DNA from: Porticoccaceae bacterium
GTDB taxonomy: Bacteria; Pseudomonadota; Gammaproteobacteria; Pseudomonadales; Porticoccaceae
Length of the DNA: 64,000 nt
Direction: 5' to 3'
Assembly (NCBI GenBank): GCA_028280905.1
Contig: JANQKW010000331.1
Coordinates: forward strand, 2,000 to 65,999
Part shown: positions 40,779 through 60,448 of the stretch, one piece after another
Position numbering within the stretch: the stretch's first letter is position 1
Layout: every line of letters begins with the position of its first letter
Notes under the pieces: model-generated
What the model was told of the DNA's origin: nothing
Databases searched by the model: none
What the model saw: the letters and a program-made list of their open reading frames with translations, nothing else
Made by a program: the position numbers and the translations under genes

Positions 40779-40789
40779 TGAATATCCCT

Positions 40790-41584: not shown

Positions 41585-41919
41585 ACTAGAACCCACTTAT
41601 ATTAGTAGTTTGTTATTGTAATAGCGGAGATGTTTCAGCTTTGCCCAAGCAGAGCTTAATGTTGCTCACTCTGCTGTGCGTATAAAAACCAAAGGTATGG
41701 AATTATTAATTCCTGCGCAAATGAAATATTGGAATGGAGGTTCGTAGTTATGGAATGCTAGCTGTCGTTAGGGGAACGTGTATATTGAGTCGGTCATTCC
41801 CTGGCCATATGCTGTCTACGTTCCATTTCTCGTCGAGTAAACCACGATGGAATAGCAGGATAAATAGCCGCTGCCGTTTCAACCGAGCTTAAGTAGGATT
41901 TTATCGAGCAATGCCCGAA

Positions 41920-43050: not shown

Positions 43051-43886
43051 TTGTTTGCTTCCGTCTTTATAGGGTGAGTCTGAACCTTGTTTAACGATTG
43101 CGTGTCGATCTGACGCCACTTTTCTTCTTCGGGAAGGTCTACTGGTATGTCTCGAAAGGACTTTTTGCCAGTAAACGTTGCAGAGATTATATTGACATCT
43201 AAGTTGATTTCGGATAATACCACCGCCGCGATATGAAGTGCGGCCAATAACAATAGCAGGTAGTAACACCAAATATGCATAGTAACAACAGGATTGCGAA
43301 CAGCGAGCATTTTCGTATATGTTACAGGGTTGACTGTCGCTAACATTTCAGCTCGAAGTGATGTCATAAATCCAGGCACATTGGGCTTTACTTCCGAAGG
43401 GTCTACTTCCGGGGCAGCAATATACTGTGATATTGCACCTCCAAACGGTGGCATATAGATGTCAGTTCCGGTAAGTAATAGCCCGCTTGACCCTTGAATA
43501 ATAAAAAGTACAATGAATAAAGAAACTGCGAGACGCCCCAAAGGGTTATGCCCCAGGAAAGAGGGCTTATGTCGTCCGAACATTCCACGAATATACTCTA
43601 AGAAAGACCTGGCATAGCCCTGCCTGAACGGTAATATATGTCGCCATTGAGCGTAATAACTGCCTGTCCATCCCCAGACTATTCGCCACAAAAGATTAGC
43701 TATAAATATATAGCCAACTAATGTATGAATTTTTTTTAGAAGAACATAACCGTCGAGCGATAATCCTAATTCCATTCCATAATGAACGACGCTTCCACTG
43801 AATATTAGGAGCAGAAAGCTGATGAAGTTTATCCAATGGAATACACGTACAGAGCGACCCCACACGTGAAATTCATTCAGGCTCAT
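43047..43886 (-). CDS. Membrane b-type cytochrome (cytochrome b561 / Ni-Fe hydrogenase b-subunit-like family)
   Basis: 279 aa. RSVRVFHWINFISFLLLIFSG..., four TM helices with conserved His (HW, KIHTLVGY, LGHNPLG, ALHIAAV). Its stop overlaps the next start (ATGA). Confidence 0.7.
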   Translation of the reverse strand: MSLNEFHVWGRSVRVFHWINFISFLLLIFSGSVVHYGMELGLSLDGYVLLKKIHTLVGYIFIANLLWRIVWGWTGSYYAQWRHILPFRQGYARSFLEYIRGMFGRHKPSFLGHNPLGRLAVSLFIVLFIIQGSSGLLLTGTDIYMPPFGGAISQYIAAPEVDPSEVKPNVPGFMTSLRAEMLATVNPVTYTKMLAVRNPVVTMHIWCYYLLLLLAALHIAAVVLSEINLDVNIISATFTGKKSFRDIPVDLPEEEKWRQIDTQSLNKVQTHPIKTEANK

Positions 43887-44221: not shown

Positions 44222-46351
44222 ATGTGTCACAGATATAGTAGACTTGCATTAGCAGTTCTTTTCACCGCCGGACCAGTATCTGGAATTGCTGAAACAGGTG
44301 CAGGAAACGACACCAAGGCGACGAATAGTAGCAGCCAGTACATTGAAGAGATTACGGTAACCGGTCGGCCGGCTTTCGTGGACAATCAATCAGCGACTAT
44401 TGGTGCGCTGGGCAATAAAGATGCATCGGAAATACCACTGGCTATTAGCTCGTACGGCTCGGTTCTGATTCAGAACCAGCAATTGCGTACGCTAACGGAA
44501 ATTTCAAAAAATGACTCGTCGATTCAGGATGCTGCCTTTAACGCATCATATTCGAATGTCAGTATTCGCGGATATATAACCGATTGGACGAATTCCCTAA
44601 AACGTAATAACTTGCCATTAGCTCCTTACCAGGACATACCTATTGAGGGTATTGAGCAAGTGGCTATCCTCAAAGGGCCGTCAGGCTTCTTGTATGGTCT
44701 GACTCCTCCTGGCGGTACGGTCAATTATATATCCAAGCGCCCGACAAGGGATTCTTTTACCTCTTTGACCATCGGCGGCGGAAGTTTTGGGCGTTGGTAT
44801 GTCGCAGGTGATGCCAGCCGTAGAATTAACGATAATGTTGCTGTTCGGGTTAATGCAGGACATGAGCGACAGGGCGATGACTTTGACAAAAAAGATGATT
44901 TTGAGCGTAGCTTTGTAACTGCAGCAGTTGATTGGGTTATCAACGATCAGGCAGTGTTACAGATTAATGGCGACTTCCAAAACAAGAAGGTAGCAGCGCA
45001 CACGCCGCTAGGTACTAGAAATGGCTTGCTACCGCCGTTGAATGATCCTCGTACACTAATAGGTTTGCCTTGGTTGAATTACGAGACCGATGTCTACAAC
45101 TTAAATCCACGTTTGGATTACAACATCAATGATAATTGGTCATTTACCATTCAGGCCGGTTACTCTTCCAATACACGGTTTACTGCATTTCCGGGTGTTG
45201 GGTCAGTCGATCCAGCAACGGGCGATATAATCTCGGCTGATTCACGTACCCGTATAAGGATTTCTCCAGATCAGACTTATCGTTCATTGTCTGGCGAAGC
45301 GTTCATGACGGGCAATTTTAACACCGGCGGTATCAGTCACGAGCTAGTAATTGGTGCTTCTGGAGTCCGTTATCGGGCTAAGGAAAGTGGATATTTCATT
45401 ATTCCCGACCTCCCTATCGGTAATATATTTACGCCAGATTACAGTTTTCCTGAGCCGGCGTTGCCCGATCCGCTTCCGACTAAGACCCATAATGATGTAG
45501 ATCAGGACGGGCCATTTTTCAGCGACATGATTAGTCTTAGTGAGCAGGTGCAGTTGCTGCTAGGCGGCAGGCATGTGACATTCGACAACACCCAGTCTCG
45601 AGCAGGTGCCGTGCTAAAAGAATTTAATCGCAAAAAGTTTGTGCCAAATGTGGGCTTGATCTATCGACCTACTCAGGATGTTATGTTTTATGCCAATTGG
45701 ACTAAAGGTATAGAACAATCTAATGTGGCGCCACCAAGTGCGAATAATGCAGGCGAGCAATTCGGTCCTCTAGAGAGCGATTCATATGAAATTGGGGCCA
45801 AGGCTTCTGTAACGGACGATATAAGCGTTACTTTGTCGCTTTTCGAGATTACCAAATCCCTGGAGTTCATTAATCTTGCCGGAGACTTTGGGCAAGATGG
45901 AGAACAGCAGCATCGAGGTATCGAACTTTCCGCAAATGGCCGAATTCTCGATAACCTGCATTTCATTGCAGGTGCAACGTACCTCGATACCGAGCAACTG
46001 AACTTGGCAGATGTGGATGTAATCGGTAAGCGGTCTCCCAACGTGCCGGAATTTCAAGCTAACCTTTACCTTGATTATCAGGTGCAAGCCGTTGAAGGGC
46101 TAAATTTGACTGCGTCTATTTATCATAATGGCGATAAAGCTGTTAACGCCGCTAATACGCTCTTCATCCCCTCTTATACGACGGGCGAAGTTGGAGCTCG
46201 TTATGCAACTAAATTAGGGGATAAACATATTGTCTATCGCGCGACCATCAGAAATATAACGGACAAGGATTACTGGGCTGCTGCACAGTCCGGTCAGGTC
46301 ATGATATCTCAGCCGCGTACATTTATGCTCTCGGCCCAGATTGAATTGTAG
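44222..46351 (+). CDS. TonB-dependent outer-membrane receptor (siderophore-receptor type)
   Basis: Signal peptide, plug region (EEITVTGR...VAILKGPSGFLYG), a long beta-barrel and a terminal aromatic residue region (...FMLSAQIEL). Confidence 0.9.
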   Translation: MCHRYSRLALAVLFTAGPVSGIAETGAGNDTKATNSSSQYIEEITVTGRPAFVDNQSATIGALGNKDASEIPLAISSYGSVLIQNQQLRTLTEISKNDSSIQDAAFNASYSNVSIRGYITDWTNSLKRNNLPLAPYQDIPIEGIEQVAILKGPSGFLYGLTPPGGTVNYISKRPTRDSFTSLTIGGGSFGRWYVAGDASRRINDNVAVRVNAGHERQGDDFDKKDDFERSFVTAAVDWVINDQAVLQINGDFQNKKVAAHTPLGTRNGLLPPLNDPRTLIGLPWLNYETDVYNLNPRLDYNINDNWSFTIQAGYSSNTRFTAFPGVGSVDPATGDIISADSRTRIRISPDQTYRSLSGEAFMTGNFNTGGISHELVIGASGVRYRAKESGYFIIPDLPIGNIFTPDYSFPEPALPDPLPTKTHNDVDQDGPFFSDMISLSEQVQLLLGGRHVTFDNTQSRAGAVLKEFNRKKFVPNVGLIYRPTQDVMFYANWTKGIEQSNVAPPSANNAGEQFGPLESDSYEIGAKASVTDDISVTLSLFEITKSLEFINLAGDFGQDGEQQHRGIELSANGRILDNLHFIAGATYLDTEQLNLADVDVIGKRSPNVPEFQANLYLDYQVQAVEGLNLTASIYHNGDKAVNAANTLFIPSYTTGEVGARYATKLGDKHIVYRATIRNITDKDYWAAAQSGQVMISQPRTFMLSAQIEL

Positions 46352-46442: not shown

Positions 46443-47876
46443 ATGCCAGAAACCATCCCGAATCTGATTGCTGGAGAATGGGTTGAGTCTTCAAACACCA
46501 TTACAAATATCAACCCCTCGGACACCACCGATGTTATTGGTCAATATGCGTCTGCGTCTGTCGAAGATGTGGACAATGCTGTCACAAATGCCCATGATGC
46601 ACAAAAGACATGGGCTGGATTGACGCCTCAACAGCGAAGCGAGGCGCTTGATCGTGTGGCAACAGAATTGCTTGAAAGACGGGAAGAGATTGCCAGACAA
46701 CTTTCACGGGAAGAGGGAAAAACCATTCCCGAATCTACGGCGGAGGTAACAAAATCTTCACACCTATTTAAATACTATGCTGGAGAGGCAGTTCGTGTTT
46801 CCGGTGAGCATCTAAGCTCTATCAGGCAGAACATTGACGTAGATATAGCACGTAAACCCGTAGGTGTTGTCGGTCTTATCACGCCGTGGAATTTTCCGAT
46901 TTCGATTCCTGCCTGGAAGTCAGCGCCTGCGTTAGCGTATGGAAATGCAGTCATACTGAAGCCTTCTGAGCTGACATGCGCCAGTGCATGGACACTTACA
47001 GAGATTGTTGAAAAGCACCTGCCCAAAGGCGTTTTTCAGCTAACAATGGGTGATGGATCTACAGGCGGTGCGCTTTCCTCTCATCCCGGAGTTAAAGCGG
47101 TAAGCTTTACCGGCTCAACTCAAACAGGATCAAAAATTGCCGAAGCTGTGCACAAAAGGGGAGCTCGGCTTCAGATGGAAATGGGCGGGAAGAATCCGCT
47201 TATTATTATGGAAGATGCGGATTTGGAACTCTCTGTAAAGTATGCGATCTCTGGTGCGTTTTACAGTACCGGCCAACGATGTACGTCATGTAGTCGGATG
47301 GTCGTTGAAGAGCAGGTCTATGAAGCGTTTGTCGACAAAATGTTAAAAGGCATGGAGGAACTCAGGATAGGTCATGCGTTGGAATCGGACTCAAATATAG
47401 GCCCGTTAATCAGTGAAAATCAGTTGAATCGCGTTCTTGGCTATATCGATATCGGCCGTCAGGAGGGTGCTACCCTCGCAGTTGGAGGTGAAGTGCTTGA
47501 TCGGCCGACCCCGGGCTTCTACATTAGTCCAGCGCTGTTTGTCGATACGGACCCATCCTTTCGGATAAACCAGGAAGAAATATTCGGACCGGTAGCCTCA
47601 ATTATCAAAGTGAAAGGGATTGAACAAGCGATCTCGGTAGCGAATGACGTTCCTTATGGGCTTTGTGCGGGAATAATGACTAACTCGCTGGCTTACACTC
47701 AAAAATTCCGTGATGAAATAAGCAGCGGTATGGCTATGGTTAATATGCCGACAGTTGGCACTGACTACCATGTGCCGTTTGGCGGTGCGAAAGGTTCTGG
47801 CTACGGACCGCGAGAAATGGGAACCTATACCCGCGAATTCTATACTGTGACAAGAACGGTTTACACAGCAAAATAA
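46443..47876 (+). CDS. NAD(P)-dependent aldehyde dehydrogenase (ketoglutarate-semialdehyde-dehydrogenase-like)
   Basis: 477 aa with ...ITPWNFP...KPSELT...EMGGKNP...GQRCTSCSR...EEIFGPV. Confidence 0.9.
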   Translation: MPETIPNLIAGEWVESSNTITNINPSDTTDVIGQYASASVEDVDNAVTNAHDAQKTWAGLTPQQRSEALDRVATELLERREEIARQLSREEGKTIPESTAEVTKSSHLFKYYAGEAVRVSGEHLSSIRQNIDVDIARKPVGVVGLITPWNFPISIPAWKSAPALAYGNAVILKPSELTCASAWTLTEIVEKHLPKGVFQLTMGDGSTGGALSSHPGVKAVSFTGSTQTGSKIAEAVHKRGARLQMEMGGKNPLIIMEDADLELSVKYAISGAFYSTGQRCTSCSRMVVEEQVYEAFVDKMLKGMEELRIGHALESDSNIGPLISENQLNRVLGYIDIGRQEGATLAVGGEVLDRPTPGFYISPALFVDTDPSFRINQEEIFGPVASIIKVKGIEQAISVANDVPYGLCAGIMTNSLAYTQKFRDEISSGMAMVNMPTVGTDYHVPFGGAKGSGYGPREMGTYTREFYTVTRTVYTAK

Positions 47877-48138: not shown

Positions 48139-48180
48139 ACTACCCCATAGATTTGAAACGGCTGAGTATCGTCGACCTAA

Positions 48181-49615: not shown

Positions 49616-49667
49616 CTAGCACAAAATGTTGCTGAAGAGCATATACAGCTTATTGAACAGCTCGGAT

Positions 49668-50567
49668 TTAGTCTATTGTCATATTAAGGTCATCTTTGGC
49701 GCTTTCGAGTAATCGGGCCGCAAATTCTTCAGCCAGTCGCGACATTCTTCGGTTGCGCGCGGTTAAAAGGAAAATTTGGAAACTAATCTTGGGTCTAAAT
49801 CTTCTGATTTCATAATTTAGGTGAGAAAACTCGGCGGCGCTATAGGCGTTAACAAGAGAAACGCCGGCACCTGCTGCTACAAAGCTGCATGTCGTCGACG
49901 AAAATATAGCTTCAAACCTTTTATTTACTGAGACGTTTAAAGCCTTGAACAGGCCTTCAAGCCTTTGGCGTGTGCCATCGACGCCACCCGTCAGGATAAA
50001 GGTTTCACCATTCAGGTCTTCAGGAGATATGGTATCTTTCTCTGATAACGGGTGTCCTTGCGGTAAGATGCAGACAGCCTCCACTTCAGCTAGAAGTTCT
50101 GCATTCACTCTGTCACTATCTGCGATCATACCGATTCCTAAATCGGCTTGACCGCTTATAATCCAGTCCTGAATCTTCGTTGAACTATGGCTGTGAAGAG
50201 ATAGATTTACAGTTTCTTTCCCCTCAATAAACTGTGTACATTGATTTGGAAGCCAGTTAGTCGAAAGAAGCGGGAGTGCGGCAATAATTAGACGGCCCCT
50301 ATTGAGGCCTTTTATATCTTTTGCAATTTGGTCAAGATTTTCCAGCGCTTCAAAAGTCCGCAAAACGTGTTGGTAGAAAATTTTAGCGTCTTCCGTCGGT
50401 TCAATACGCCCCTTGGATCGTTCAAATAGCGGCATTTTAATATCGTGCTCTAGCTGCGCTATGAGCTTGGTTACTGCGGGTTGTGTAACGAATAACTTGT
50501 CAGCCGCAGCGGTCATAGAGCCACTTTCCATTACGACTTTAAATGCTTCAATTTGTTTCGTCTTCAT
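49668..50567 (-). CDS. LysR-family transcriptional regulator
   Basis: N-terminal wHTH IEAFKVVMESGSMTAAADKLFVTQPAVTKLIAQLE; 299 aa. Confidence 0.9.
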   Translation of the reverse strand: MKTKQIEAFKVVMESGSMTAAADKLFVTQPAVTKLIAQLEHDIKMPLFERSKGRIEPTEDAKIFYQHVLRTFEALENLDQIAKDIKGLNRGRLIIAALPLLSTNWLPNQCTQFIEGKETVNLSLHSHSSTKIQDWIISGQADLGIGMIADSDRVNAELLAEVEAVCILPQGHPLSEKDTISPEDLNGETFILTGGVDGTRQRLEGLFKALNVSVNKRFEAIFSSTTCSFVAAGAGVSLVNAYSAAEFSHLNYEIRRFRPKISFQIFLLTARNRRMSRLAEEFAARLLESAKDDLNMTID

Positions 50568-50649
50568 TGAGAAGCTCGTATTGACGATATTAGAGTTTTA
50601 CTAATATAGCACAACCCTGGGATAGTAAAGTCATCGGTATGCCAATGGT

Positions 50650-52155
50650 TCACTCGCTAGCGAGCATTTTGATATCTTTCTTGAGCGTGACCCTGGCGTT
50701 ATCCAGGGAACCCCTTAGTTTCTTCTCATATTCGATATCTTTTGCCAGTTTCTTTTCAGCGGTAGCGAGGATCCGCGAGACCTCCTTGTGCGAAGGGCCT
50801 CCTCTTGACCGCCTACTCTCAACAGACTGATTGGGGTCGAGAAGTTTCTCTACATCTGAGTCTTTAATATAAAGTTGCGTACCAATAGTCTCCATAGCTG
50901 CGCTTTCAATGATAGCTGAACTAATCGCATCGGCCGAGATGTTTTGCTCCATCATCAGTCTTACAACAGTGCCGGCAATATGGTGAGAATCCCTGAAACT
51001 AATTCCATAATCCTGTACCAACGATTCAGCAAGATCAGTTATTGTTGAAAAACTTTCTCTGACCCGTTTAAGCATGTTTTCGGGTTTCGGCTTGATGGTT
51101 TCCATGATAAGGCTAACCAACACAAGGCTGTCCGCGGTTGTCTGCAGAACTTGCCAAGCTCCTTTCGGCGAAGCGCGCACGCCATCAATTGTATTGGTGA
51201 AATGCGTAGCCCTTATGGTGGAGCACATTGAAACCATATCGCCAATTATCTGTGCGCCAGTTGCTTTCAAGTACTCAAGGACAACAGGATTCTTTTTGTG
51301 GGGCATAATACTTGAAGCACCGGAAACCCTGTCGGGAAATTCGATCAGGTTGAACTCATCTGTAGCCCAAATATAAAGATCTTGAACCAAACGAGTCCAG
51401 GTTGTTCCCAGCGTGACACACGCCATGCACGACTCGCTCAAAAAATCACGGGAGGCCACTGCGTCAAGGCTATGCTCTACAATCCCGTCAAAGCCAAGAA
51501 GTTCAGCAACCATCGGGCGATTGACCGGGAATTTTGTGCCTGAGAAAGCGGCGGCACCCATAGCCGAATGGTTCATTCCTATGATGCTGTTTTTGAACCT
51601 AAGGTAATCACGCGCGAGAGCTTGTTCGATACCCAAGCAATAGAAGCCCAGGGTAATTGGCTGGGCGGCCTGGAGATGGGTATATCCTGGCATCACTACC
51701 TTGGCATGGCTGCGCGCCTGTTCCAGCGTGTTGAGGCGAACCCCATTTAGCCGCTCAGATATAAGCAGGCATAGTTTCCGCGCTCGCATTCGGTCAATGG
51801 TTGCACCCATGTCATTGCGGCTTCTTCCTACATGAAGGCGTCCGCCGGCGTCCTGGCCAACCATATTCATTAACGTGGCTTCAAAATTGAAGTGCGCATC
51901 TTCCCGGGAAGCGTCGCGTGAAATAAAAGCAGCGCCACGACACTCTATATCTATTAATGCCTTTGCAAGCTGCCTGCCAATCTCGGCAGAAATTAACCCC
52001 TCCTTGGCAAGCATTAGCAGATGTGCCTGGTTGACATCTACGATGTGTTCAAAGTTGTTCTCAATTTCATTGTCTAGTCGGGGCTGGTAGATCAGTTCTT
52101 GGACCTCGCGCGCCATACTCTCAGTGAGACGCTTGCTTACGGACGACGCAGGCAT
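50650..52155 (-). CDS. Argininosuccinate-lyase-like class I (aspartase/fumarase superfamily) C-N lyase
   Basis: GRLHVGRSRNDMGAT and the signature SSIMPHKKNP. Start set at the ATG with GGAGG 5 nt upstream (MPASSVSKRL); the track ORF extends to 52221. Confidence 0.75.
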   Translation of the reverse strand: MPASSVSKRLTESMAREVQELIYQPRLDNEIENNFEHIVDVNQAHLLMLAKEGLISAEIGRQLAKALIDIECRGAAFISRDASREDAHFNFEATLMNMVGQDAGGRLHVGRSRNDMGATIDRMRARKLCLLISERLNGVRLNTLEQARSHAKVVMPGYTHLQAAQPITLGFYCLGIEQALARDYLRFKNSIIGMNHSAMGAAAFSGTKFPVNRPMVAELLGFDGIVEHSLDAVASRDFLSESCMACVTLGTTWTRLVQDLYIWATDEFNLIEFPDRVSGASSIMPHKKNPVVLEYLKATGAQIIGDMVSMCSTIRATHFTNTIDGVRASPKGAWQVLQTTADSLVLVSLIMETIKPKPENMLKRVRESFSTITDLAESLVQDYGISFRDSHHIAGTVVRLMMEQNISADAISSAIIESAAMETIGTQLYIKDSDVEKLLDPNQSVESRRSRGGPSHKEVSRILATAEKKLAKDIEYEKKLRGSLDNARVTLKKDIKMLASE

Positions 52156-52529
52156 TTGAACCTCCATGGTCAAGTTGAGTTGGAATTTGTATTTTCGCTT
52201 CAATGGCGATGAACGCGCCAATTCATAATGCGCCGCAAACTATTCCATATTGTTATCGTGCGTTTTTGCTAGACCAGCGGATTTCGCTATTTGGGTGCCA
52301 AAGTTGGGCTAAATAGCGCCCATTGGCAGCCTATAACTTTTCGGAATACTATACTTAGATTAAGCGATTGGACACGGTGCGCAATTACAAACAACATATT
52401 GGAAACAGCGTAGAGATTGTGAATCTCCGCATAAAAATATTACACCGTGCAAGCAGAAGAATTGACGCCCGAAGCTAGAAATAGTCAAGCGGCTTAAGAT
52501 AGCCGCTGTCAAGCATAAGAGCAAAAGTT

Positions 52530-52859
52530 ATGGTAGAAAGGCCACAGCAGTTTCAACGCTTATATGAATTTGGGGCAGAACCTTTAACGTTTTCAGTTGA
52601 TGGAAAGACCCTGGAGGCGAGGCCTGGCGAACTGCTATTAACAGCTATTCTGTTGCATCGAGGGCATGTCCGTGATTTCGAATTTACCGATGCCAAACGC
52701 GCAGGGTTTTGTTTTATGGGTGCCTGTCAGGATTGCTGGGTGACACTGTCAGACGGTAGCCGAGTCAGGGCATGTGACACACTAGTTGAAAACGGAATGG
52801 AAGTCTTAACAACATATGAACGGAACGCGGCTTTAGAGGGGCAGGAAGATGTCTCCTAG
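52530..52859 (+). CDS. Small (2Fe-2S)-binding subunit, HcnA / opine-oxidase gamma-like
   Basis: 109 aa with the Cys pattern FCFMGACQDCWVTLSDGSRVRAC. Confidence 0.75.
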   Translation: MVERPQQFQRLYEFGAEPLTFSVDGKTLEARPGELLLTAILLHRGHVRDFEFTDAKRAGFCFMGACQDCWVTLSDGSRVRACDTLVENGMEVLTTYERNAALEGQEDVS

Positions 52860-54213
52860 TGTCGTTGTTGTAGGTGCGGGGCCTGCTGGCGTAAGAGCTA
52901 CGGCGGCTATTGCAGGTAAAGGTGTTCCTGTAACCCTGATAGATGAAGGTGCGCGTGTTGGCGGGCAGATATACAGGCAGCCCCCGCCCGGCGCTGAGCG
53001 CCCCCCCAAAGATTTATATGGCTCGGAAGCGGCAAAGGCTGTTGCAGTACACGGCTGTCTTAAAGAATTCAAAGGGTTAATTGATTATCGGCCCAGTACG
53101 CTTGTTTGGAATGTATTCAAAGGGCAGTTGGATCTAAAGAGTGCTGGAGGTGAGGAGAAGGTACCATTCGATCGCCTACTGATTGCCACCGGAGCCTTTG
53201 ACCGTGTGATTCCTTTTCCTGGCTGGACGTTGCCCGGCGTATTCACATTGGGCGCTGCGCAAATCGCATTAAAAGCTCAGGGCGTTGCCATTGGTCGAAA
53301 AGTAGTGTTGGTGGGTGCAGGTCCTTTATTGCCTCTTGTAGCCAGCCAGTACTTGAAGGCTGGCGCCGAAGTAGCCGCCGTAATCGACGTAACGCCCTTT
53401 TCTGCAAAGGTTGCCGGCTTTTGGCAAATGATGTCGAAGCCAGATGTTGTGCTTCGCGGGCTTGGCTACTTATATGAAATACGCAAACATCGAGTTCCCG
53501 TGTTTTATGGGGCCCGCAACCTGGCTGTTGACGGGAGTCAAAACGTTGAAAGCTTTAGTTGGACCTCATCGGGAGGCAAGTCTCATCGCGTGGACTGCGA
53601 TGCCGTCGGTGCTTCATTTGGCCTGCGGAGCGAAACGCAGCTGGCAGACTTGGCCGGTTGCGAGTTTGAATTTGACCATTTGCTGAGGCAGTGGCTTCCT
53701 ATTGCGCGTGAGGGTGGCCGAACAACCCAGGAAACTGTGTATGTAGCGGGTGACTGTGCAGGAATTGGCGGCGCAGATGTTGCTGAGTTACAGGGGGATT
53801 TGGTAGCGAATTCAATTCTTGAAGACCTTGGTGTGTCAGTTGACAAAGAAAGACTGACTGTAGTCGAAAAGCGGTTGCGCCAATATTCGAGGTTTCGTGC
53901 GGGCATGGAGCGTGCGTATCCCTTTCCGCACCATCTTTTAGATGACCTTCCCGAAGACTTGATGTTATGCAGATGTGAGGGCATAAAGCTCGGGCATCTT
54001 ATGGAAGTCGATGCGAAGACCTCTCCGCATGACGTCAATAGGCAAAAGGCGTTCAGTCGCGTTGGGCTGGGTCGCTGTCAAGGCCGGGTGTGCGGTATGG
54101 CGGCAGCAGAGATACTGTCTAAATTCAACGGAAGTTCTATTGAATCTGCCGGACGCCTTCGGGGGCAGCCACCGGTGAAACCTATAACCTTTACCGGCTC
54201 ATCAGCTACATAA
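52849..54213 (+). CDS. FAD/NAD(P)-binding oxidoreductase subunit, HcnB / OoxA-like
   Basis: VVVVGAGPAGVRAT and VVLVGAGPLLP dinucleotide folds. C-terminal BFD-like Cys cluster CRCEGI...GRCQGRVC. 11-nt overlap with the upstream gene. Confidence 0.8.
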   Translation: MSPSVVVVGAGPAGVRATAAIAGKGVPVTLIDEGARVGGQIYRQPPPGAERPPKDLYGSEAAKAVAVHGCLKEFKGLIDYRPSTLVWNVFKGQLDLKSAGGEEKVPFDRLLIATGAFDRVIPFPGWTLPGVFTLGAAQIALKAQGVAIGRKVVLVGAGPLLPLVASQYLKAGAEVAAVIDVTPFSAKVAGFWQMMSKPDVVLRGLGYLYEIRKHRVPVFYGARNLAVDGSQNVESFSWTSSGGKSHRVDCDAVGASFGLRSETQLADLAGCEFEFDHLLRQWLPIAREGGRTTQETVYVAGDCAGIGGADVAELQGDLVANSILEDLGVSVDKERLTVVEKRLRQYSRFRAGMERAYPFPHHLLDDLPEDLMLCRCEGIKLGHLMEVDAKTSPHDVNRQKAFSRVGLGRCQGRVCGMAAAEILSKFNGSSIESAGRLRGQPPVKPITFTGSSAT

Positions 54214-54316
54214 TCCTGGGTAATGATGCAAAGAAGTTAGAAATACCATGTTAATAACCAGGCGCAGTTAATTAGGAATATGTATAACTCCGCACTTTCA
54301 TATTTAGGAGAACTTT

Positions 54317-55210
54317 GTGAACACAGAGGCTGTAACACCCCCCAGTGGTATTAATATTTTCTCATCATTTCCACCTGGCGTGTTCATGCGTTATGAGCCG
54401 GCTATTGGTTCTACTCCGGTGGTAGTTGACGTTTCCCGTAGTGGACATCGTTACCCTGTCGATTTTAGACCAGATGCACCGTTTAGCGCTGTGCATACGA
54501 AGATTTCAATGTATGTGGACGAGCTTCTTTCCTATGCTCCTGAAGCCGGTGCTACGTTGCTGGTTGCTGAATTTCCGATAACAGTCATAGATACCAATCG
54601 CCTGCCAGATGATGTTGATCCCGCGATAGTTGACGGAACATTATCCTTCACACCGAATCCGACAGACCGGTCACTTAAGAACGGTGCTGGCCTAATACAT
54701 ACCCTGGGAGCGGGCAGAGTCCCGCTATACGAAGGCAAACTCAGCGCGGCCCAGATTATGGCGCGTATACAGCGATACTATGACCCTTACCATGCCGAGC
54801 TAAAACGTCTCTTGGAAAAAGCCAAGGAAGGACAGAATAAGGCATACCATCTTAGCTTCCATTGCATGTCGTCGATCGATCCTAAAAACCCGGACGGCGC
54901 TGATGCTCGTCGACCGGATATTTGCCTTGGTGATCTAAATGGCCAGACCTGTGGCACCGAATTTCGTGAAATTGTTGCTGAGTATTTTGGAAAGCAGGGC
55001 TACGAGGTAGCGATTAACTCACCGTTTAAAGGTGGACAACTTATTGAGCGGTATGGTAAGCCGGAGGCAGGAACCGAAAGCCTTCAAGTAGAGTTGTGTA
55101 AGCGGCTTTTTATGAATGAGGCAAATGGAGAGCGTAGCGAGAAATTTTGTGAATTGCAGCGGCAACTTGGGGAAGTTGTCCGGCAGGTCTGTGAATATTC
55201 TAAACGATGA
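54317..55210 (+). CDS. N-formylglutamate amidohydrolase (FGase) family hydrolase
   Basis: VVDVSRSGHRYP..., ...SFHCMSS... pattern and the ~300 aa size fit the family. GTG start with AGGAGA 5 nt upstream. Confidence 0.6.
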   Translation: MNTEAVTPPSGINIFSSFPPGVFMRYEPAIGSTPVVVDVSRSGHRYPVDFRPDAPFSAVHTKISMYVDELLSYAPEAGATLLVAEFPITVIDTNRLPDDVDPAIVDGTLSFTPNPTDRSLKNGAGLIHTLGAGRVPLYEGKLSAAQIMARIQRYYDPYHAELKRLLEKAKEGQNKAYHLSFHCMSSIDPKNPDGADARRPDICLGDLNGQTCGTEFREIVAEYFGKQGYEVAINSPFKGGQLIERYGKPEAGTESLQVELCKRLFMNEANGERSEKFCELQRQLGEVVRQVCEYSKR

Positions 55211-55237
55211 TTTCGACAAATATCACAAAGGTGCCAA

Positions 55238-56854
55238 ATGAAACGTAGAGAATTCCTATATGGATCCGCCGCTCTTTTGGGGGCGGCCCAACTGGGCCTT
55301 ACTGGCTGCTCTAGCGGTAGTAACGACACCGAAAAAAAATCCAAAGCTGTCGTTATAGCGTGGAAGATAGACGATATTTCATCGCTTGATCCGGCCATAG
55401 CATTCGAGAAGGTTTCGTCCGAGGTTTGCCGTAATATTTATAACACACTCGTTGTCTATAAGATGGAAGACACAACACAGTTTGAGGGATTGGCGGCGGA
55501 AAGTTGGGAGGATGCAGGTGATGGTAAAAACTATACCTTCCATATCCGAAAAGGGATGACCTTTCATTCGGGCCGTCCTGTGACGGCGCATGACTTCGTT
55601 TATTCCATTGAGCGAGCGCTTGGATTGGGTCGCGCACCAATTATTATCCCGGCTGGGTTGGGGTTCACAAAAGAAAATGTCCGTGAGTGTGTCAAGGCAG
55701 TAGACGACTATACGATTGGCATCTCTCTTCCCGAAGAGCGCGCATTGACCTTTGTGCTGGCCTGCTTTACAACCTGCGTAATGGCTGTTGTTGATAGTGA
55801 AGAAGTTAAAGCGCACGAAATGGACGGCGATTGGGGTTCGGAATGGCTGCGAAAAAATTCTGCCGGATCCGGTCCGTTCAAGCTCCGCAACTGGGTAGCA
55901 AATGAATCCGTTGCCTTCGAGCGATATGATGGTTACTGGCGTGGCCCTGCGGCGGCAGAAATTATTTTGCTGCGACATCTTCCCGAACCCTCCACACAGC
56001 AGCTTTTGCTGGAGAGGGGTGATATACATGTAGCTCGAAATTTAAATACCACGCAAATCAACCGATTTACGGATGATCCAAATTTTGACGTAGTAGCCGC
56101 GCCTTCATTTCGCCTGGTTTATATGAATTTAAATACGAAGTATGAGCCGTTTCAAAATTCAAAAGTCCTCAAGGCGCTCAAGTACCTAATAGATTACGAA
56201 GGCATCAACAATACCATTCTCAAAGGATTTGCCGATATTCACCAAACGTTGGTGCCCCAAGGTATCTGGGCTTCGCTACGGGAGAATCCATATACGTTTG
56301 ATCCAGAGCGTGCAAAGACACTCCTAGCTGAAGCGGGTTATCCGGATGGTTTTGAAGTTGCGCTTGATGTTCGCGGCTCTTCGCCTGATCTCGAAATGGC
56401 GCAAACGGTCCAGGCGTCATTTGCGCTGGCTGGCGTTAAAATGGTGATAAATACGGCCGACTATAAACAGATGTTGACTAAATATAAGTCTAGACGGCAC
56501 CAGATAGTACTGGCGAACTGGGGCGCTGACTATCCCGACCCCCAGGCAATGGCGCTTCCGTTTGCCGGTAATCCCGATAACTCAAATGCTGCAACGCTGA
56601 AGACGGTTGCTTGGCGGGCGTCTTGGCAGGACGAAGAGCTAACAGCGCGTATCCTGGCCGGAGCGAAAGAAGTTGATTCCGCAAAACGCAAAGCCCTATA
56701 TGAAGATGTGCAGCGCGAGCAAGCGGACAAAGGACCGGTTATCCAGATGTTCCAACTGAGACAGGTTATCGTCGTTCCGAAAGGATTCCGAGGGCCTCTG
56801 TTAAGTCCGAGTTCTCGTTGCGATACCTATCTGAATATGGGTAAAAAAGTTTAG
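55238..56854 (+). CDS. ABC transporter solute-binding protein, family 5 (peptide/opine/nickel type), probable lipoprotein
   Basis: KRREFL twin-arginine-like signal with the lipobox LTGC; 538 aa, with ...DISSLDPA...YNTLV... family 5 features. Confidence 0.85.
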   Translation: MKRREFLYGSAALLGAAQLGLTGCSSGSNDTEKKSKAVVIAWKIDDISSLDPAIAFEKVSSEVCRNIYNTLVVYKMEDTTQFEGLAAESWEDAGDGKNYTFHIRKGMTFHSGRPVTAHDFVYSIERALGLGRAPIIIPAGLGFTKENVRECVKAVDDYTIGISLPEERALTFVLACFTTCVMAVVDSEEVKAHEMDGDWGSEWLRKNSAGSGPFKLRNWVANESVAFERYDGYWRGPAAAEIILLRHLPEPSTQQLLLERGDIHVARNLNTTQINRFTDDPNFDVVAAPSFRLVYMNLNTKYEPFQNSKVLKALKYLIDYEGINNTILKGFADIHQTLVPQGIWASLRENPYTFDPERAKTLLAEAGYPDGFEVALDVRGSSPDLEMAQTVQASFALAGVKMVINTADYKQMLTKYKSRRHQIVLANWGADYPDPQAMALPFAGNPDNSNAATLKTVAWRASWQDEELTARILAGAKEVDSAKRKALYEDVQREQADKGPVIQMFQLRQVIVVPKGFRGPLLSPSSRCDTYLNMGKKV

Positions 56855-56882
56855 TACATTTCAATCACTGAAATTGGCAGCC

Positions 56883-57908
56883 ATGTATATAAATAAGACA
56901 TTCTTCCGTGAAATGGCCAAAGTGCTCTTCTCTGCGCTGGTCACCTTGTTCGGACTTCTTATACTAACTTTTTTTATTGCACGGTTATTGCCAATCGACC
57001 CTGTTCTCGCGGTTGTGGGAGAACAGGCCTCGGAGGCGGCATACGAAAGGGCTCGGCAAGATCTTGGGTTGGACAAGTCTCTTTTCCAACAACTGATCCT
57101 TTACTTACAAAATATTGTTCAAGGAGATCTAGGTCAATCGTTTCTCACCAGAAACGATATTGTCGATGATCTAAAAAGGGTCTTTCCCGCAACCATCGAG
57201 CTTGCGACAACGGCGACAATTATTGGCGTACTGATTGGCGTTCCCTTAGGAACATGGGCAGCTGCTAAACAAGACGGATGGCCAGACCACGTCGCTCGTT
57301 TCCTTGGAGTATTGGGGCATTCTGTGCCAGCCTTTTGGCTCGGCATGATAGCACTGCTGATTTTTTACGCGAAACTCGGCGTCGTGCCTGGACCAGGTCG
57401 CGTAGATGATATCTATTACGGGCTTGTCACGCAGCAGACCGGATTAATATTGGTCGATTCTTTAATGCAGGGGCAAATTGAAGTATTTCGCAATGCTGTT
57501 TCACATTTGATATTGCCTGCCACTGTGTTGGGTATTTTCTCCGTTGCTAACATCAGCAGAATGACGCGAAATTTTGTTCTTGCGGAATTGCGTCAGGAAT
57601 ATGTGACGACGGCCAGGGTAAAAGGCATGGATATGCGCACGATAATAATAAGGCAAGTGCTTCCCAATACATTTGTTTCTTTGATAACTGTCATAGCACT
57701 GCAGTTGGGTGCGCTTTTGGAGGGGGCGGTACTGACCGAAACTATCTTCGGATGGCCGGGGTTGGGATTGTATATGAAAAATTCGCTCCTTAATGCGGAC
57801 ACCAATGCAGTGCTCGGCGGTACGCTATTGGTTGGTGTGACGTTTATTCTGCTCAACACCGGTGCCGATGCGCTGTACCGAATTCTCGACCCTAGAGCTA
57901 GAAACTAA
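56883..57908 (+). CDS. ABC transporter permease (DppB/OppB type)
   Basis: ...ARLLPIDPV...LGLDKS...GDLGQS. Six TM segments. Start is ATG 56883 (the track uses TTG 56874). Confidence 0.9.
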   Translation: MYINKTFFREMAKVLFSALVTLFGLLILTFFIARLLPIDPVLAVVGEQASEAAYERARQDLGLDKSLFQQLILYLQNIVQGDLGQSFLTRNDIVDDLKRVFPATIELATTATIIGVLIGVPLGTWAAAKQDGWPDHVARFLGVLGHSVPAFWLGMIALLIFYAKLGVVPGPGRVDDIYYGLVTQQTGLILVDSLMQGQIEVFRNAVSHLILPATVLGIFSVANISRMTRNFVLAELRQEYVTTARVKGMDMRTIIIRQVLPNTFVSLITVIALQLGALLEGAVLTETIFGWPGLGLYMKNSLLNADTNAVLGGTLLVGVTFILLNTGADALYRILDPRARN

Positions 57909-57926
57909 CCACCGGTAAGAGAATCT

Positions 57927-58829
57927 ATGAACGTAAAATCTACTATAGAATGGCTCGTTTCTGATGAGCCTCAATCAGCCCGACAGGCGTGGTTAGGTCA
58001 GCTTTTTATAGGGTTCAGGGCATTTCAACAAAATGTGCTAGGTATGACTGGGCTGGGAATTGTCCTGGGAATTATTATCATCGCGGCGCTGGCGCCAGTA
58101 ATTGCACCCTATGCCCCGGATGCACAGGATTTGTCACATCGCCTCGAACCCTCAAGCGCACAGCATTGGCTTGGAACTGACGAGTTTGGCCGGGATATTT
58201 TTTCACGAATAATATATGGAACGACGTATACACTGCAATTTGTCACCCTGGTGATTGTTGCAATAGCACCCATAGGCTTGCTCATCGGTGTAACCGCGGC
58301 TTATGCCGGTGGCGTTGTCGACCACATACTAATGCGCATAACGGATATTTTCCTGTCATTTCCCAGATTAATTCTGGCCTTGGCTTTTGTGGCGACTCTG
58401 GGGCCCGGCTTAGGTAACGCGATGATTGCGATTGTTCTAACTGCATGGCCACCTTATGCCAGGGTTGCAAGAGCCGAAGCACTCAGAATTCGCAATAGCG
58501 ATTTTATTTCAGCAGCAAAGATTGCGGGTGCTCCACCCAGACGAATTGTGTTGGGACATATCGTTCCCCTCTGTATTCCAACCATCATTGTGCGGGGCTC
58601 TCTTGATATGGGTAGCATTATTCTGACAGCGGCAAGTTTGGGCTTCTTGGGGCTGGGCGCCCAGCCTCCCCAACCGGAATGGGGCGCAATGATTTCTGCA
58701 GGGCGACAGTACTTTCTTGAACAATGGTGGATCTCGACAATCCCGGGGATTGCCATATGTATCGCCACTATTGGGTTTAACCTGTTAGGCGATGGATTGC
58801 GCGACGTACTGGACCCCAAATACCGCTGA
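57927..58829 (+). CDS. ABC transporter permease (DppC/OppC type)
   Basis: ...HWLGTDEFGRDIFSRIIYG... is the hallmark of OppC-type permeases. Confidence 0.9.
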   Translation: MNVKSTIEWLVSDEPQSARQAWLGQLFIGFRAFQQNVLGMTGLGIVLGIIIIAALAPVIAPYAPDAQDLSHRLEPSSAQHWLGTDEFGRDIFSRIIYGTTYTLQFVTLVIVAIAPIGLLIGVTAAYAGGVVDHILMRITDIFLSFPRLILALAFVATLGPGLGNAMIAIVLTAWPPYARVARAEALRIRNSDFISAAKIAGAPPRRIVLGHIVPLCIPTIIVRGSLDMGSIILTAASLGFLGLGAQPPQPEWGAMISAGRQYFLEQWWISTIPGIAICIATIGFNLLGDGLRDVLDPKYR

Positions 58830-58837
58830 GTATATTT

Positions 58838-59644
58838 ATGAATAGATCTGCTAACGACGGCATGAATAATCTGATTGAGGTCGAAAACCTGCGCGTCAGT
58901 TTTAGAACACGTTTAGGTGAGGAATCAGAAGTTTTACATGGCATATCATTCAATGTCGGTCATGAAAAACTGGGAATCGTTGGAGAATCTGGTTCTGGAA
59001 AGTCCATCACAGCGCGATCTATCCTGCGGATCATGCCGCCCGGCAGTTCAACCACAGCCGACAGCATCAGTTTTAAAGGCCGTGAACTAACGACTCTTTC
59101 TGAGAAGGAAATGTGTAAATTCAGGGGTAAACACATTTCAATGATAATGCAGGATCCTAAATATTCTCTGAACCCAACCATGCGTATTGGAGATCAGATC
59201 GCAGAGATGCTCAGGCTACACACAAAAATTGGCAAGAAAGAAGCCCTTGATAGGTCGCTCGCTGCGCTTGAATCTGTACATATGAGAGATCCAGAACGAG
59301 TTATGCGGGCATATCCTTTAGAGTTGTCTGGTGGAATGGGGCAGAGGGTGATGATAGCGATGATGTTAATTACGGCGCCAGGTCTATTGATCGCAGACGA
59401 ACCGACGTCGGCCCTGGACGTCTCCGTGCAATTGCAGATTTTGAGTTTGCTCGATGAACTGGTCACCAAAAGCAATATGGGACTGATGTTTATCAGCCAT
59501 GCCCTCCATATGGTGTCGTCGTTCTGTGATCGGGTAATCGTGATGTATAAAGGGAATATTGTGGAGACATGCGCAGCGTCTGAACTGGCGAACGCCACGC
59601 ATCCATATACACGTCGCTTGCTCGATGCAACGGAAACTATATAA
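58838..59644 (+). CDS. ABC transporter ATP-binding protein (DppD type)
   Basis: GESGSGKS, LSGGMGQRV, LLIADEPTSALD. Confidence 0.9.
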   Translation: MNRSANDGMNNLIEVENLRVSFRTRLGEESEVLHGISFNVGHEKLGIVGESGSGKSITARSILRIMPPGSSTTADSISFKGRELTTLSEKEMCKFRGKHISMIMQDPKYSLNPTMRIGDQIAEMLRLHTKIGKKEALDRSLAALESVHMRDPERVMRAYPLELSGGMGQRVMIAMMLITAPGLLIADEPTSALDVSVQLQILSLLDELVTKSNMGLMFISHALHMVSSFCDRVIVMYKGNIVETCAASELANATHPYTRRLLDATETI

Positions 59645-59680
59645 CGCGCTTACCGCCACGAAAGGAGCTTAACTAAGAAA

Positions 59681-60448
59681 ATGATTAGTGTTCGAGGGCT
59701 TACAGTTACTTTTACTAACGGCGAGGAGAAATTCGTCGCCGTTGACGATGTGTCATTTGATATTGCAGAGGGCGAATCTTTTGGTCTTGTTGGAGAATCA
59801 GGTTCCGGAAAAAGCACAATATTAAAGGCCATGACGGGTCTGGTGACATCCTGGACGGGTGAAGTTTCGATCAACGGAATGGGCGTTACGCCGAACTCGC
59901 GATCAAAGTCATTTTGCAAGTTAGTACAGATGGTCTTTCAGGACCCTTACGGATCGCTACACCCACGCCACACGGTGCATCGTGTGTTGTCTGAAACGCT
60001 GGCAATTCATGGGCTTGATAAAAGCGCAGACTCGGAAACCAAGATTACGGAGGTGCTCGAGTCCGTTGGACTGGAGTCTGCAATGCGGTTTAGATACCCG
60101 CATCAACTGTCGGGTGGGCAAAGACAGCGTGTCGCTATCGCGCGTGCCGTCATATTGGAACCGTTAGTTCTTCTTCTGGATGAGCCGACATCTGCATTAG
60201 ATGTTTCGGTGCAAGCGGAGGTTCTTGATCTCTTCGAGAAGTTACGTGACGAACGCGGATTAACAATGCTTCTCGTGACGCACGATTTGGCTGTTGTTGC
60301 GCGAATGTGTGGCAGAATAGCTGTTATGCGTGCTGGAAAGCTGGAAGAGCAGGTTACCGCGAATCAACTCAGAGCCGGCGATACGGATAACGCTTACACT
60401 CAGCATTTACTTGTTGCAAGCAGGGGGTTTCAACGGTCTGAGGTTTAG
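59681..60448 (+). CDS. ABC transporter ATP-binding protein (DppF type)
   Basis: GESGSGKST, LSGGQRQRV, LLLDEPTSALD. Confidence 0.9.
   Translation: MISVRGLTVTFTNGEEKFVAVDDVSFDIAEGESFGLVGESGSGKSTILKAMTGLVTSWTGEVSINGMGVTPNSRSKSFCKLVQMVFQDPYGSLHPRHTVHRVLSETLAIHGLDKSADSETKITEVLESVGLESAMRFRYPHQLSGGQRQRVAIARAVILEPLVLLLDEPTSALDVSVQAEVLDLFEKLRDERGLTMLLVTHDLAVVARMCGRIAVMRAGKLEEQVTANQLRAGDTDNAYTQHLLVASRGFQRSEV

Follow-up and report, generated by a model that had tools for sequence, protein, structure and literature searches.

A conserved gene module in a Porticoccaceae bacterium with a siderophore-type receptor, a three-subunit opine-dehydrogenase-type enzyme, an EDDS-lyase-like lyase and an aldehyde dehydrogenase

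Introduction

Heterooligomeric, flavin-containing opine dehydrogenases are represented by OdhABC of Pseudomonas putida and Bradyrhizobium and by the Oox and Nox enzymes of Ti plasmids; the enzymes of this family are dehydrogenases rather than oxidases, and they have been assayed with artificial electron acceptors (PMC4575208). In Chelativorans, aminopolycarboxylates are imported by an ABC transporter with the binding protein EppA and cleaved by the oxidase IdaA (PMC7312458). Here, we describe a gene module of about 23 kb at positions 37840-60448 of a 64,000-nucleotide stretch of contig JANQKW010000331.1 from a Porticoccaceae bacterium, hereafter called the window. The module is an uncharacterised gene set that recurs in marine and soil Proteobacteria, and it links a siderophore-type receptor to an opine-dehydrogenase-type enzyme, a C-N lyase that resembles ethylenediamine-N,N'-disuccinate (EDDS) lyase, and an aldehyde dehydrogenase. 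All of its components come from known families, and their overall logic appears to be that of opine or aminopolycarboxylate catabolism. On balance, we think that the module is a conserved, probably horizontally acquired unit for the uptake and catabolism of an opine-like or aminopolycarboxylate compound, and that it encodes a complete αβγ amine dehydrogenase.

Gene content and comparison with described systems

An earlier note on this DNA had described a plus-strand operon together with a divergent lyase gene and a LysR gene. Every gene that it named is found in the list of open reading frames (ORFs) at the positions it gave, and its gene content and family assignments agree with the Pfam matches. 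The E-values of these matches span 1e-15 to 1e-84 for the operon, lyase and LysR genes, so that chance matches are no concern. Related loci are numbered here with the prefix L: L088 is the contig of the relatives L002-L004 followed to its end, and L089 and L091 belong to one contig. The genes of the module in the window are listed below.

37840..39279, minus strand: ABC-2 permease with DUF3526, first of two (Pfam ABC2_membrane_2 and DUF3526; 52-55% identity and synteny in L088 and L091)
39327..40778, minus strand: ABC-2 permease with DUF3526, second of two (Pfam; 58-59% identity in L088, L089 and L091)
40790..41596, minus strand: ATPase of the ABC-2 transporter (Pfam ABC_tran; 72-73% identity in L088, L089 and L091)
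41920..43050, minus strand: catalytic DAO-family subunit with flavin adenine dinucleotide (FAD), assigned as β (Pfam DAO, 1e-68)
43047..43886, minus strand: four-helix b-type cytochrome (PF01292, cytochrome b561; Pfam Ni_hydr_CYTB, 3e-25)
44222..46351, plus strand: TonB-dependent outer-membrane receptor, siderophore subfamily (TIGR01783)
46443..47876, plus strand: aldehyde dehydrogenase dependent on nicotinamide adenine dinucleotide (phosphate), NAD(P) (Pfam Aldedh, 1e-157)
49668..50567, minus strand: LysR regulator (Pfam HTH_1 and LysR_substrate, 4e-36)
50650..52155, minus strand: C-N lyase of the aspartase/fumarase superfamily (Pfam Lyase_1, 4e-44; ASL_C2, 7e-15)
52530..52859, plus strand: γ, [2Fe-2S] subunit, 109 amino acids (Pfam Fer2_4, 3e-21)
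52849..54213, plus strand: α, FAD/NAD-binding subunit, 454 amino acids (Pfam Pyr_redox_2, 2e-25; SO_alpha_A3)
54317..55210, plus strand: FGase-family (zinc) amidohydrolase (Pfam FGase, 2e-53)
55238..56854, plus strand: family-5 periplasmic binding lipoprotein (Pfam SBP_bac_5, 4e-84)
56874-57908 and 57927-58829, plus strand: two importer permeases (Pfam BPD_transp_1 with OppB and OppC N-terminal domains)
58838-59644 and 59681-60448, plus strand: two short importer ATPases (Pfam ABC_tran)

The lyase ORF extends over 50650-52221 on the minus strand, and its probable ATG at 52155 is preceded by GGAGG; with this start, the divergent spacer between the lyase and γ genes is 374 bp. The γ and α genes overlap by 11 nt, with the ATG of α at 52849 and the TAG of γ at 52857-52859.

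Like the enzyme encoded by the module, the described opine dehydrogenases consist of a DAO-type β-subunit, a Pyr_redox_2-type α-subunit with a BFD-like cluster and a small 2Fe-2S γ-subunit, and their gene clusters also include LysR and a binding-protein-dependent importer. The "type-2" opine dehydrogenase cluster of Burkholderia has the gene order γ-α-β, as have the relatives of the window, and the β-subunit of the type-2 enzyme resembles the archaeal proline dehydrogenase (PMC4575208), as does the β-subunit of the window. The type-1 Oox and Nox enzymes, with the order β-γ-α, are less similar to the window in this respect, and the NoxA, NoxB and Nox 2Fe-2S proteins of pTiC58 show only 32%, 26% and 37% identity to the window proteins. 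The nopaline region of pTiC58 follows the same logic of β-γ-α genes, LysR gene and transporter. However, the β gene is not displaced in the opine dehydrogenase operons, whereas in the window it is located 9.5 kb away and is coupled to a gene for a cytochrome b. Furthermore, arginase and ornithine cyclodeaminase, which accompany the enzyme on the Ti plasmids, are absent from the module, where a C-N lyase, an aldehyde dehydrogenase, an FGase-family protein and a TonB receptor are found instead, and the importer is of family 5 rather than family 3.

The second system for comparison comprises EDDS lyase, EppABCD and IdaA of Chelativorans sp. BNC1. EDDS lyase is a long protein of ~500 amino acids, as is the window lyase, in which the catalytic Ser and the fumarate pocket are kept; chelators are likewise taken up through a binding-protein-dependent ABC importer, and a secondary amine is cleaved oxidatively (PMC7312458, PMC7586795). 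The two lyases are 30% identical, and their amine pockets differ by D290V and Y320N. The EmoA/EmoB monooxygenase is absent from the module, while an outer-membrane receptor and an aldehyde dehydrogenase are added. IdaA, a DAO-type flavoprotein, is a single-protein oxidase, whereas the window encodes a three-subunit dehydrogenase.

In architecture, LhpBEF and HcnABC resemble the window enzyme, with three subunits and the same cofactor motifs. The hydroxyproline pathway also has an aldehyde dehydrogenase step downstream, as has the module, but its epimerase and its pyrroline-hydroxy-carboxylate deaminase are absent from the module, and the presence of a lyase, a hydrolase, an importer and a receptor suggests a substrate that is larger and multiply N-substituted. 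The best plasmid relatives of the FGase-family protein, with 38-40% identity, are encoded on vitopine-type Ti plasmids (pTiS4, pTiCA75/95), where the gene directly adjoins those for an FAD oxidoreductase, an ABC importer and a regulator. In these plasmids, the FAD oxidoreductase is a single protein and the region contains hydantoinase/oxoprolinase and MmgE/PrpD genes, whereas it lacks the α- and γ-subunits, the lyase and the TonB receptor.

Our searches of the literature on DUF3526, on FGase proteins associated with an opine oxidase, on new functions of Odh, Lhp and Hcn homologs, on EDDS biosynthesis and on bacterial phytosiderophore catabolism revealed no characterised ortholog or function, and no assignment of the module to hydroxyproline catabolism or another known pathway was found. 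To our knowledge, no description exists of a TonB receptor combined with an αβγ dehydrogenase, an EDDS-lyase-like lyase and an aldehyde dehydrogenase, nor of the conserved displacement of the β gene or its coupling to a cytochrome b.

A displaced gene for the β-subunit

Since no β gene adjoins the γ and α genes, the enzyme had been called incomplete in the earlier note. Yet all three subunit genes are present, and by orthology we assign the DAO gene at 41920-43050 as the cognate β-subunit. This assignment is based on four observations. First, its product is 54-56% identical over the full length to the products of the DAO genes located directly 3' of α in L005-L007, 55% identical to the DAO protein of L002 and 65% identical to that of L089, as compared to only 23% for a second, paralogous DAO protein in L005. 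Second, the β gene normally follows the α gene. Among the 5915 relatives of α that were scored, the closest showed 76% and 66% identity and came from metagenomes, and next were many Alphaproteobacteria with 55-60%. When a single genome per species was scanned, with 57% as the best identity to α among GTDB species representatives, 80 loci were obtained; together with the loci collected earlier, 82 loci contain both α and a DAO homolog, and in 79 of these the DAO gene is located directly downstream of α on the same strand. Third, the identity of the DAO homologs to the window DAO tracks the identity of their α-subunits to the window α (Pearson r = 0.82, 82 loci). Fourth, the best solved matches of α and β are 1Y56_A and 1Y56_B, two chains of one complex, the L-proline dehydrogenase of Pyrococcus. 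In two contexts of the alphaproteobacterial type, the genes are arranged in the order γ-α-DAO-FGase with a LysR gene and a family-5 ABC importer nearby, and L005 additionally contains an aldehyde dehydrogenase gene and an argininosuccinate-lyase-like gene.

The three subunit genes are not adjacent in the window. The β gene is located 9.5 kb from α on the opposite strand, in a transcription unit of its own with the cytochrome b gene. The three of the 82 loci that have no β gene next to α are L002-L004, which are the nearest relatives of the window. The displacement is common to the window, L002-L004 and L089/L091, and in all three lineages (the window, L088 and L089/L091) the β gene is found 6-10 kb from α and always inside the module, suggesting that it moved within the module and that the arrangement then persisted across lineages. 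The distant DAO gene and its coupling to a cytochrome b had been seen in the earlier note, and both genes are real: the stop codon of the cytochrome gene overlaps the start codon of the β gene as ATGA, indicative of translational coupling. What had been overlooked is that both belong to the same conserved module as γ and α. The gene order is indeed split, since β is co-transcribed with the cytochrome b rather than with γ and α, and this split is conserved in the nearest lineages, but the reading as an incomplete or unusual split enzyme is not supported. On comparative rather than experimental evidence, the partner of α and γ is essentially a β-subunit encoded elsewhere, which the earlier note had itself named as evidence against its reading. 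For annotation, this is a reminder that it can be misleading to judge a multi-subunit enzyme "incomplete" solely by the genes next to one another.

The sequences also contain the cofactor motifs of the heterooligomeric αβγ flavoprotein dehydrogenases. The residues C374, C376, C410 and C415 of the putative BFD-type cluster in the C-terminus of α are invariant in alignment A1, the dinucleotide-fold motifs are GAGPAG in α and GGGIIG in β, and the cysteine pattern C-x4-C-x2-C...C can be read in the translation of γ, whose relatives are 52-61% identical. Judged from its subunits and motifs, the αβγ protein is a flavin/iron-sulfur enzyme of the family that includes opine dehydrogenase, D-hydroxyproline dehydrogenase and archaeal proline dehydrogenase.

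Two further observations concern DAO genes in the relatives. A fragment of 44 amino acids of a DAO protein is encoded just upstream of γ in the nearest relative (L002, 8099-8233), and it may be a trace of the rearrangement that separated β from α. In addition, a second set of DAO, Fer2_4 and Pyr_redox_2 genes, in the order β-γ-α, is located near the module in L088 (461-3333) and L005 (15615-18548). The α-subunits of these paralogous sets are ~31-32% identical to the window α, and in L005 an amidase gene adjoins the set.

Conservation of the module

The borders of the module were set at 37840 and 60448 because the same gene set is present in L088 and L089/L091. The module proteins are 47-73% identical between the window and L002/L088 and L089/L091, while the gene order is permuted. 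In L088, the γ, α, FGase, binding protein, permease and ATPase genes come first, then the β gene in opposite orientation, and further the TonB receptor and aldehyde dehydrogenase genes, the LysR and lyase genes, and the genes for an ABC ATPase and two ABC-2/DUF3526 permeases. In L089/L091, the block that consists of the two DUF3526 genes, the ATPase, β and cytochrome b genes, the receptor and aldehyde dehydrogenase genes, and the LysR and lyase genes is colinear with positions 37840-52155 of the window, and the γ-α-FGase-importer operon is located on the other side of this block.

A smaller core, composed of the lyase, the aldehyde dehydrogenase and the γ-, α- and β-subunits, recurs in L005, L047, L073, L088, L089 and L092. 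These loci represent at least four architectures, three of which include the LysR gene. The lyase relatives in the core loci are 40-62% identical to the window protein and the aldehyde dehydrogenase relatives 52-66%. The LysR relatives always adjoin the lyase and are 61-64% identical in L088 and L089 and 53% identical in L047 and L092. The importers vary across the architectures and have binding proteins of the families SBP5, SBP3 or SBP8, as listed below with the additional genes.

Window group (window, L088 and L089/L091): family-5 importer, with FGase, cytochrome b (not in L088) and ABC-2/DUF3526
L005: family-5 importer, with FGase and an M19 dipeptidase
L047: family-3 importer, with DUF4198
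L092: family-3 importer, with DUF4198, ornithine-cyclodeaminase-like, aminotransferase and cupin genes; also a receptor ortholog of 44% identity beside a PepSY_TM protein, and a FecR/sigma/receptor set
L073: family-8 importer, with a GMC oxidoreductase, a sugar-isomerase-type TIM barrel and an aminotransferase

Because the core recurs with importers of different families, the trio of dehydrogenase, aldehyde dehydrogenase and lyase may act on a substructure that is common to compounds with different entry routes.

The window proteins are singletons in their 90% clusters, and a search of E. coli genomes with the 11-kb region gave no match. The DUF4198 gene directly follows the β gene in L047 (12558-13439, with a 4-nt overlap with β) and in L092 (3641-4405); it occurs in the clusters with a family-3 importer, while the window lineage instead has the cytochrome b gene ahead of β. 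Upstream of the module in L002 (772-6000) are genes for a cupin, a protein with a YqcI/YcgG and a condensation domain, and a FecR/ECF-sigma pair, which may represent a small set related to natural products or siderophores.

The lyase

The best solved match of the lyase is EDDS lyase of Chelativorans (6G3D and 6RX8; PMC6973171), to which it aligns end to end with an E-value of 1e-68 and 30% identity. This agrees with the suggestion of the earlier note that the protein is an argininosuccinate-lyase-type enzyme acting on N-succinyl-type C-N bonds. With 500 amino acids, it has N- and C-terminal extensions like those of EDDS lyase. In terms of the residue roles defined for EDDS lyase (PMC7586795), the catalytic Ser280 in the SS loop is kept, and the residues of the fumarate carboxylate pocket, Ser111, Arg112, Ser281 and the Lys/Asn of KKNP, are identical; the SRND motif and the K/N motif are kept as well. 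However, Asp290 and Tyr320, which position the distal amine of EDDS, are replaced by V and N, so that the amine pocket differs from that of EDDS lyase. EDDS lyase is a widely used hydroamination enzyme, and a lyase sub-family with an altered amine pocket could be of use in biocatalysis. A metagenome scan with the lyase alignment returned mostly canonical argininosuccinate lyases (31-35% identity) among the matches listed; approximately nine loci at 38-47% were also among these matches, none of which had the αβγ genes.

Receptor, aldehyde dehydrogenase, cytochrome, hydrolase and importer

The TonB receptor has plug and barrel domains and passes the siderophore-receptor model TIGR01783 (276 > 223.5), and its best solved matches are FemA (9e-79) and BauA (1e-68). 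Orthologs are 48-49% identical in L002/L088 and L089 and 44% in L092. The receptor has no signalling (STN) domain. The aldehyde dehydrogenase is nearest to the NCBIfam model for alpha-ketoglutaric semialdehyde dehydrogenase, with 511 bits, which is below the cut-off of 770. The gap between the receptor and aldehyde dehydrogenase genes is 92 bp in the window and 37-92 bp across three lineages, for which reason the two genes are probably co-transcribed. A hairpin with a T-run is located 3' of the aldehyde dehydrogenase gene at ~47905-47935. Between the aldehyde dehydrogenase and LysR genes, the window also contains a gene for an outer-membrane channel-like protein (Phenol_MetA_deg, 48181-48960), which is absent from the sister modules.

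The cytochrome has four hydrophobic segments that contain His, and the pair of cytochrome and DAO genes is also present in L089 in the same order, with 47% identity. For the dehydrogenase, the cytochrome b may serve as electron acceptor or as membrane anchor.

The FGase-family protein scores 93 bits against the HutG equivalog TIGR02017, for which the cut-off is 279, and its assignment is to the Pfam family only. Neither the module nor the scanned window ORFs of at least 150 amino acids yielded any hut genes. The best solved match of the FGase-family protein is 2Q7S, and it shares 58-62% identity with its relatives in L002 and L091 and 41-45% with those in L005-L007. In the binding protein, a Tat-like RREFL motif and an LTGC lipobox are present. 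Among solved structures, it matches HbpA/DppA best (6e-47), followed by AgaA (3.5e-28) and NikA (1e-20). It reaches none of the specific equivalogs for DppA (157 as compared to 1005), NikA (133 to 393) and CntA (114 to 800), and is assignable only at the general level of family 5. Similarly, the nearest NCBIfam models of the importer ATPases are of the OppD, NikD and CntD type, all with scores below the cut-off.

Proposed function and alternative explanations

The gene content, the orthology of β and the conservation of the module are shown by the comparisons above; from these we infer, as follows, which class of compound is degraded, in what order the enzymes act and what the cytochrome does. 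An anionic opine-like or aminopolycarboxylate compound, with or without a metal, would cross the outer membrane through the TonB receptor, be captured by the lipoprotein binding protein and be imported by the ABC system. The αβγ enzyme would oxidise a secondary-amine C-N bond, and the electrons would reach the quinone pool via the iron-sulfur clusters and the cytochrome b. A cut on the methylene side would produce an aldehyde, which in the case of a 3-amino-3-carboxypropyl link would be an N-substituted aspartate semialdehyde. The aldehyde dehydrogenase would convert the aldehyde into an N-substituted aspartate, which the EDDS/argininosuccinate-type lyase would split into fumarate and a free amine. 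The FGase-family enzyme would take off an N-acyl or amide group found only in the substrate of this sub-lineage, and LysR would induce the genes in response to the compound or an intermediate. The proposed route from semialdehyde via aspartate to fumarate would explain why the lyase and the aldehyde dehydrogenase travel together, and it would fit aminopolycarboxylates of the nicotianamine, staphylopine and EDDS types as well as other opine-like compounds. The imported compound is possibly a metallophore. The general idea of the earlier note, that an N-carboxyalkyl or N-succinyl (opine-like) compound is imported and dismantled stepwise, remains reasonable, and a lyase, a dehydrogenase and a hydrolase are present. 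Should the imported compound be a natural aminopolycarboxylate chelator or a marine opine, the module would provide testable candidate genes for its consumption by bacteria, and the cytochrome b would be a candidate for the natural electron acceptor of a class of dehydrogenases that have so far been assayed only with artificial dyes.

A narrower proposal, which we hold to be rather unlikely, is that the trio of dehydrogenase, aldehyde dehydrogenase and EDDS/argininosuccinate-type lyase is a dedicated pathway that dismantles aminopolycarboxylate metallophores, fed by the siderophore-type TonB receptor and wired to the membrane by the b-type cytochrome. The candidates would be compounds of the nicotianamine/mugineic-acid, staphylopine/pseudopaline and EDDS/aspergillomarasmine types, with 3-amino-3-carboxypropyl or N-succinyl links. 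Oxidative cleavage of these would produce an N-substituted aspartate semialdehyde and then an N-substituted aspartate, from which fumarate would be eliminated. The cytochrome b could then be the long-missing physiological acceptor of the flavin-containing opine dehydrogenases, or it could couple the oxidation of the ligand to the release of the metal. If true, this would provide the first genetic handle on the bacterial breakdown of such chelators; the genes for the consumption of phytosiderophores were still unknown in 2021 (PMC7786132).

Several observations weigh against the function proposed first, the uptake and catabolism of an opine-like or aminopolycarboxylate compound by these proteins. 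The identity to the genetically characterised NoxA and NoxB is only 32% and 26%. The binding protein is nearer to the dipeptide and haem binders DppA and HbpA than to NikA, CntA or the opine binders, and the nearest model of the aldehyde dehydrogenase also fits imino-acid pathways. The FGase-family protein has no obvious role in the proposed three-step logic, and L088 and the alphaproteobacterial clusters lack the cytochrome, which is therefore not essential to the enzyme. Finally, the lyase shares only 30% identity with EDDS lyase, passes the argH model and keeps the His of the "YTHLQ" motif, which we take to be typical of argininosuccinate lyases.

Of the alternative explanations, the one that survives best, although it too appears unlikely, is that the module serves primarily for metal acquisition by piracy of xenosiderophores or metallophores. 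A metal chelate would be imported and the ligand destroyed to free the metal; the cytochrome b would act as a ferric-chelate reductase like PepSY_TM/FoxB, and the ABC-2/DUF3526 transporter would export the fragments. The score of the receptor against the siderophore-receptor model and its best solved matches FemA and BauA are consistent with this, but the receptor has no STN domain, and in marine Cellvibrionales TonB receptors serve for the uptake of many nutrients. The importer belongs to the Nik/Cnt/Opp class, although its binding protein is nearer to DppA than to NikA or CntA. The ortholog of the receptor in L092 is located beside a PepSY_TM protein with an adjacent FecR/ECF-sigma/receptor set, and a DUF4198 gene follows the β gene in L047 and L092. 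While a Fur-family gene (37299-37715) and the remnant of an RND pump flank the module in the window, the Fur gene is conserved in neither L088 nor L091, a search for a Fur box with up to three mismatches to the consensus gave no match, and the regulator of the module itself is of the LysR type, suggesting control by a substrate rather than a metal.

It is less likely still that the module degrades peptides that contain D-amino acids or imino acids, such as hydroxyproline- or proline-like residues or cell-wall peptides. The importer would then be of the Dpp type, the FGase-family protein a peptidase-like enzyme, αβγ an LhpBEF-like D-imino-acid dehydrogenase and the aldehyde dehydrogenase an alpha-ketoglutaric semialdehyde dehydrogenase. 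Consistently, DppA and HbpA are the best solved matches of the binding protein, the β-subunit has its best solved match in a subunit of the archaeal L-proline dehydrogenase, and the nearest model of the aldehyde dehydrogenase is that for alpha-ketoglutaric semialdehyde dehydrogenase. Furthermore, the alphaproteobacterial loci L005 and L006 contain an M19 dipeptidase, and L006 a D-serine-dehydratase-like gene. However, there is no proline racemase/epimerase and no DapA-type deaminase in the module or among the scanned window ORFs of at least 150 amino acids, and the importers of the sister architectures are of the SBP3 and SBP8 types rather than peptide systems. Degradation of such peptides would also leave the lyase without a role, even though the lyase and the aldehyde dehydrogenase always co-occur.

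There is only a slight chance that γ and α function without a canonical β-subunit or with an unknown partner, and that DAO and cytochrome b constitute an independent, membrane-linked amino-acid dehydrogenase. The characterised members of the family form one complex, and a complex that lacks γ has only low activity (PMC4575208). The distance of 9.5 kb between α and β, the separate transcription unit with the cytochrome gene and the conservation of this separation in three lineages would all fit two enzymes. On the other hand, orthology and co-variation tie the DAO gene to the β genes that adjoin α elsewhere, it is never found outside the module, and L088 has a displaced β gene without any cytochrome, all of which argues for an αβγ enzyme. 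That the lyase is an ordinary argininosuccinate lyase (ArgH) which merely adjoins the operon is highly improbable: it passes the argH model TIGR00838 with 365 bits (cut-off 279.5) and keeps the "YTHLQ" motif, but the verified EDDS lyase also passes with 345 bits, so that the model does not separate the activities, and the length of 500 amino acids with both terminal extensions resembles EDDS lyase, the gene is paired with LysR, aldehyde dehydrogenase and αβγ genes in at least six loci, and it is located in an island of low G+C content.

Genomic setting of the module

The module is probably horizontally acquired. The G+C content drops from about 0.55-0.58 to 0.45-0.50 at 36 kb, exactly at a tRNA-Ala(GGC) gene (36543-36618). 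In a scan with Rfam, a tRNA was the sole match, and no riboswitch was detected. The 24 bases ATCCCGCTTAGCTCCACCAAACAC, which span the 3' end of the tRNA-Ala gene, recur exactly at 36708-36731, 108 bp downstream, where no such match is expected by chance. The repeat resembles a scar left by the integration or excision of a mobile element. We also considered it as a marker of both ends of the island, but rejected this since the second copy is only 108 bp away and the window contains no third copy.

Remnants of other genes are located near the module. An ORF of 87 amino acids on the plus strand (37002-37265) encodes the last ~70 residues of an RND efflux pump (ACR_tran 948-1019 of 1021), which is CusA/CzcA-like by eye. 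A malic-enzyme gene at 49242-49616 on the plus strand, next to the gene for the outer-membrane channel-like protein, is internally deleted: the N-terminal ~90 residues match NAD-malic enzyme with 101 bits, and by eye this part is joined almost directly to the apparent C-terminal tail. The repeat, the gene remnants and the deleted gene fit a mobile, rearranged island. The Fur-family gene on the minus strand (37299-37715; PF01475, 110 bits) directly adjoins the ABC-2/DUF3526 genes on their downstream side. The model nearest to its product is Fur, with a score below the cut-off, and the protein has only one Cys where CxxC is usual. It was rejected as a member of the module, since it is not found at this position in the sister loci L088 and L091.

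The left half of the window contains a large catabolic cluster dependent on coenzyme A (CoA) at 14064-32885, with genes for a TRAP binding protein, MmgE/PrpD, two family-III CoA-transferases, hydantoinase/oxoprolinase A and B, an acyl-CoA ligase, four enoyl-CoA hydratases, an acyl-CoA dehydrogenase and two 3-hydroxyacyl-CoA dehydrogenases. The hydantoinase and PrpD genes were considered as part of the same opine system, since hydantoinase, PrpD and FGase genes occur together on pTiS4, but this was rejected because the identities of 27-38% are generic and the neighbors encode CoA-dependent enzymes. The flanking gcvP gene points to a marine Cellvibrionales-like gammaproteobacterium as the host: its product shares 76% identity with GcvP of Kineobactrum sediminis and 68-69% with those of Porticoccus and Maricurvus.

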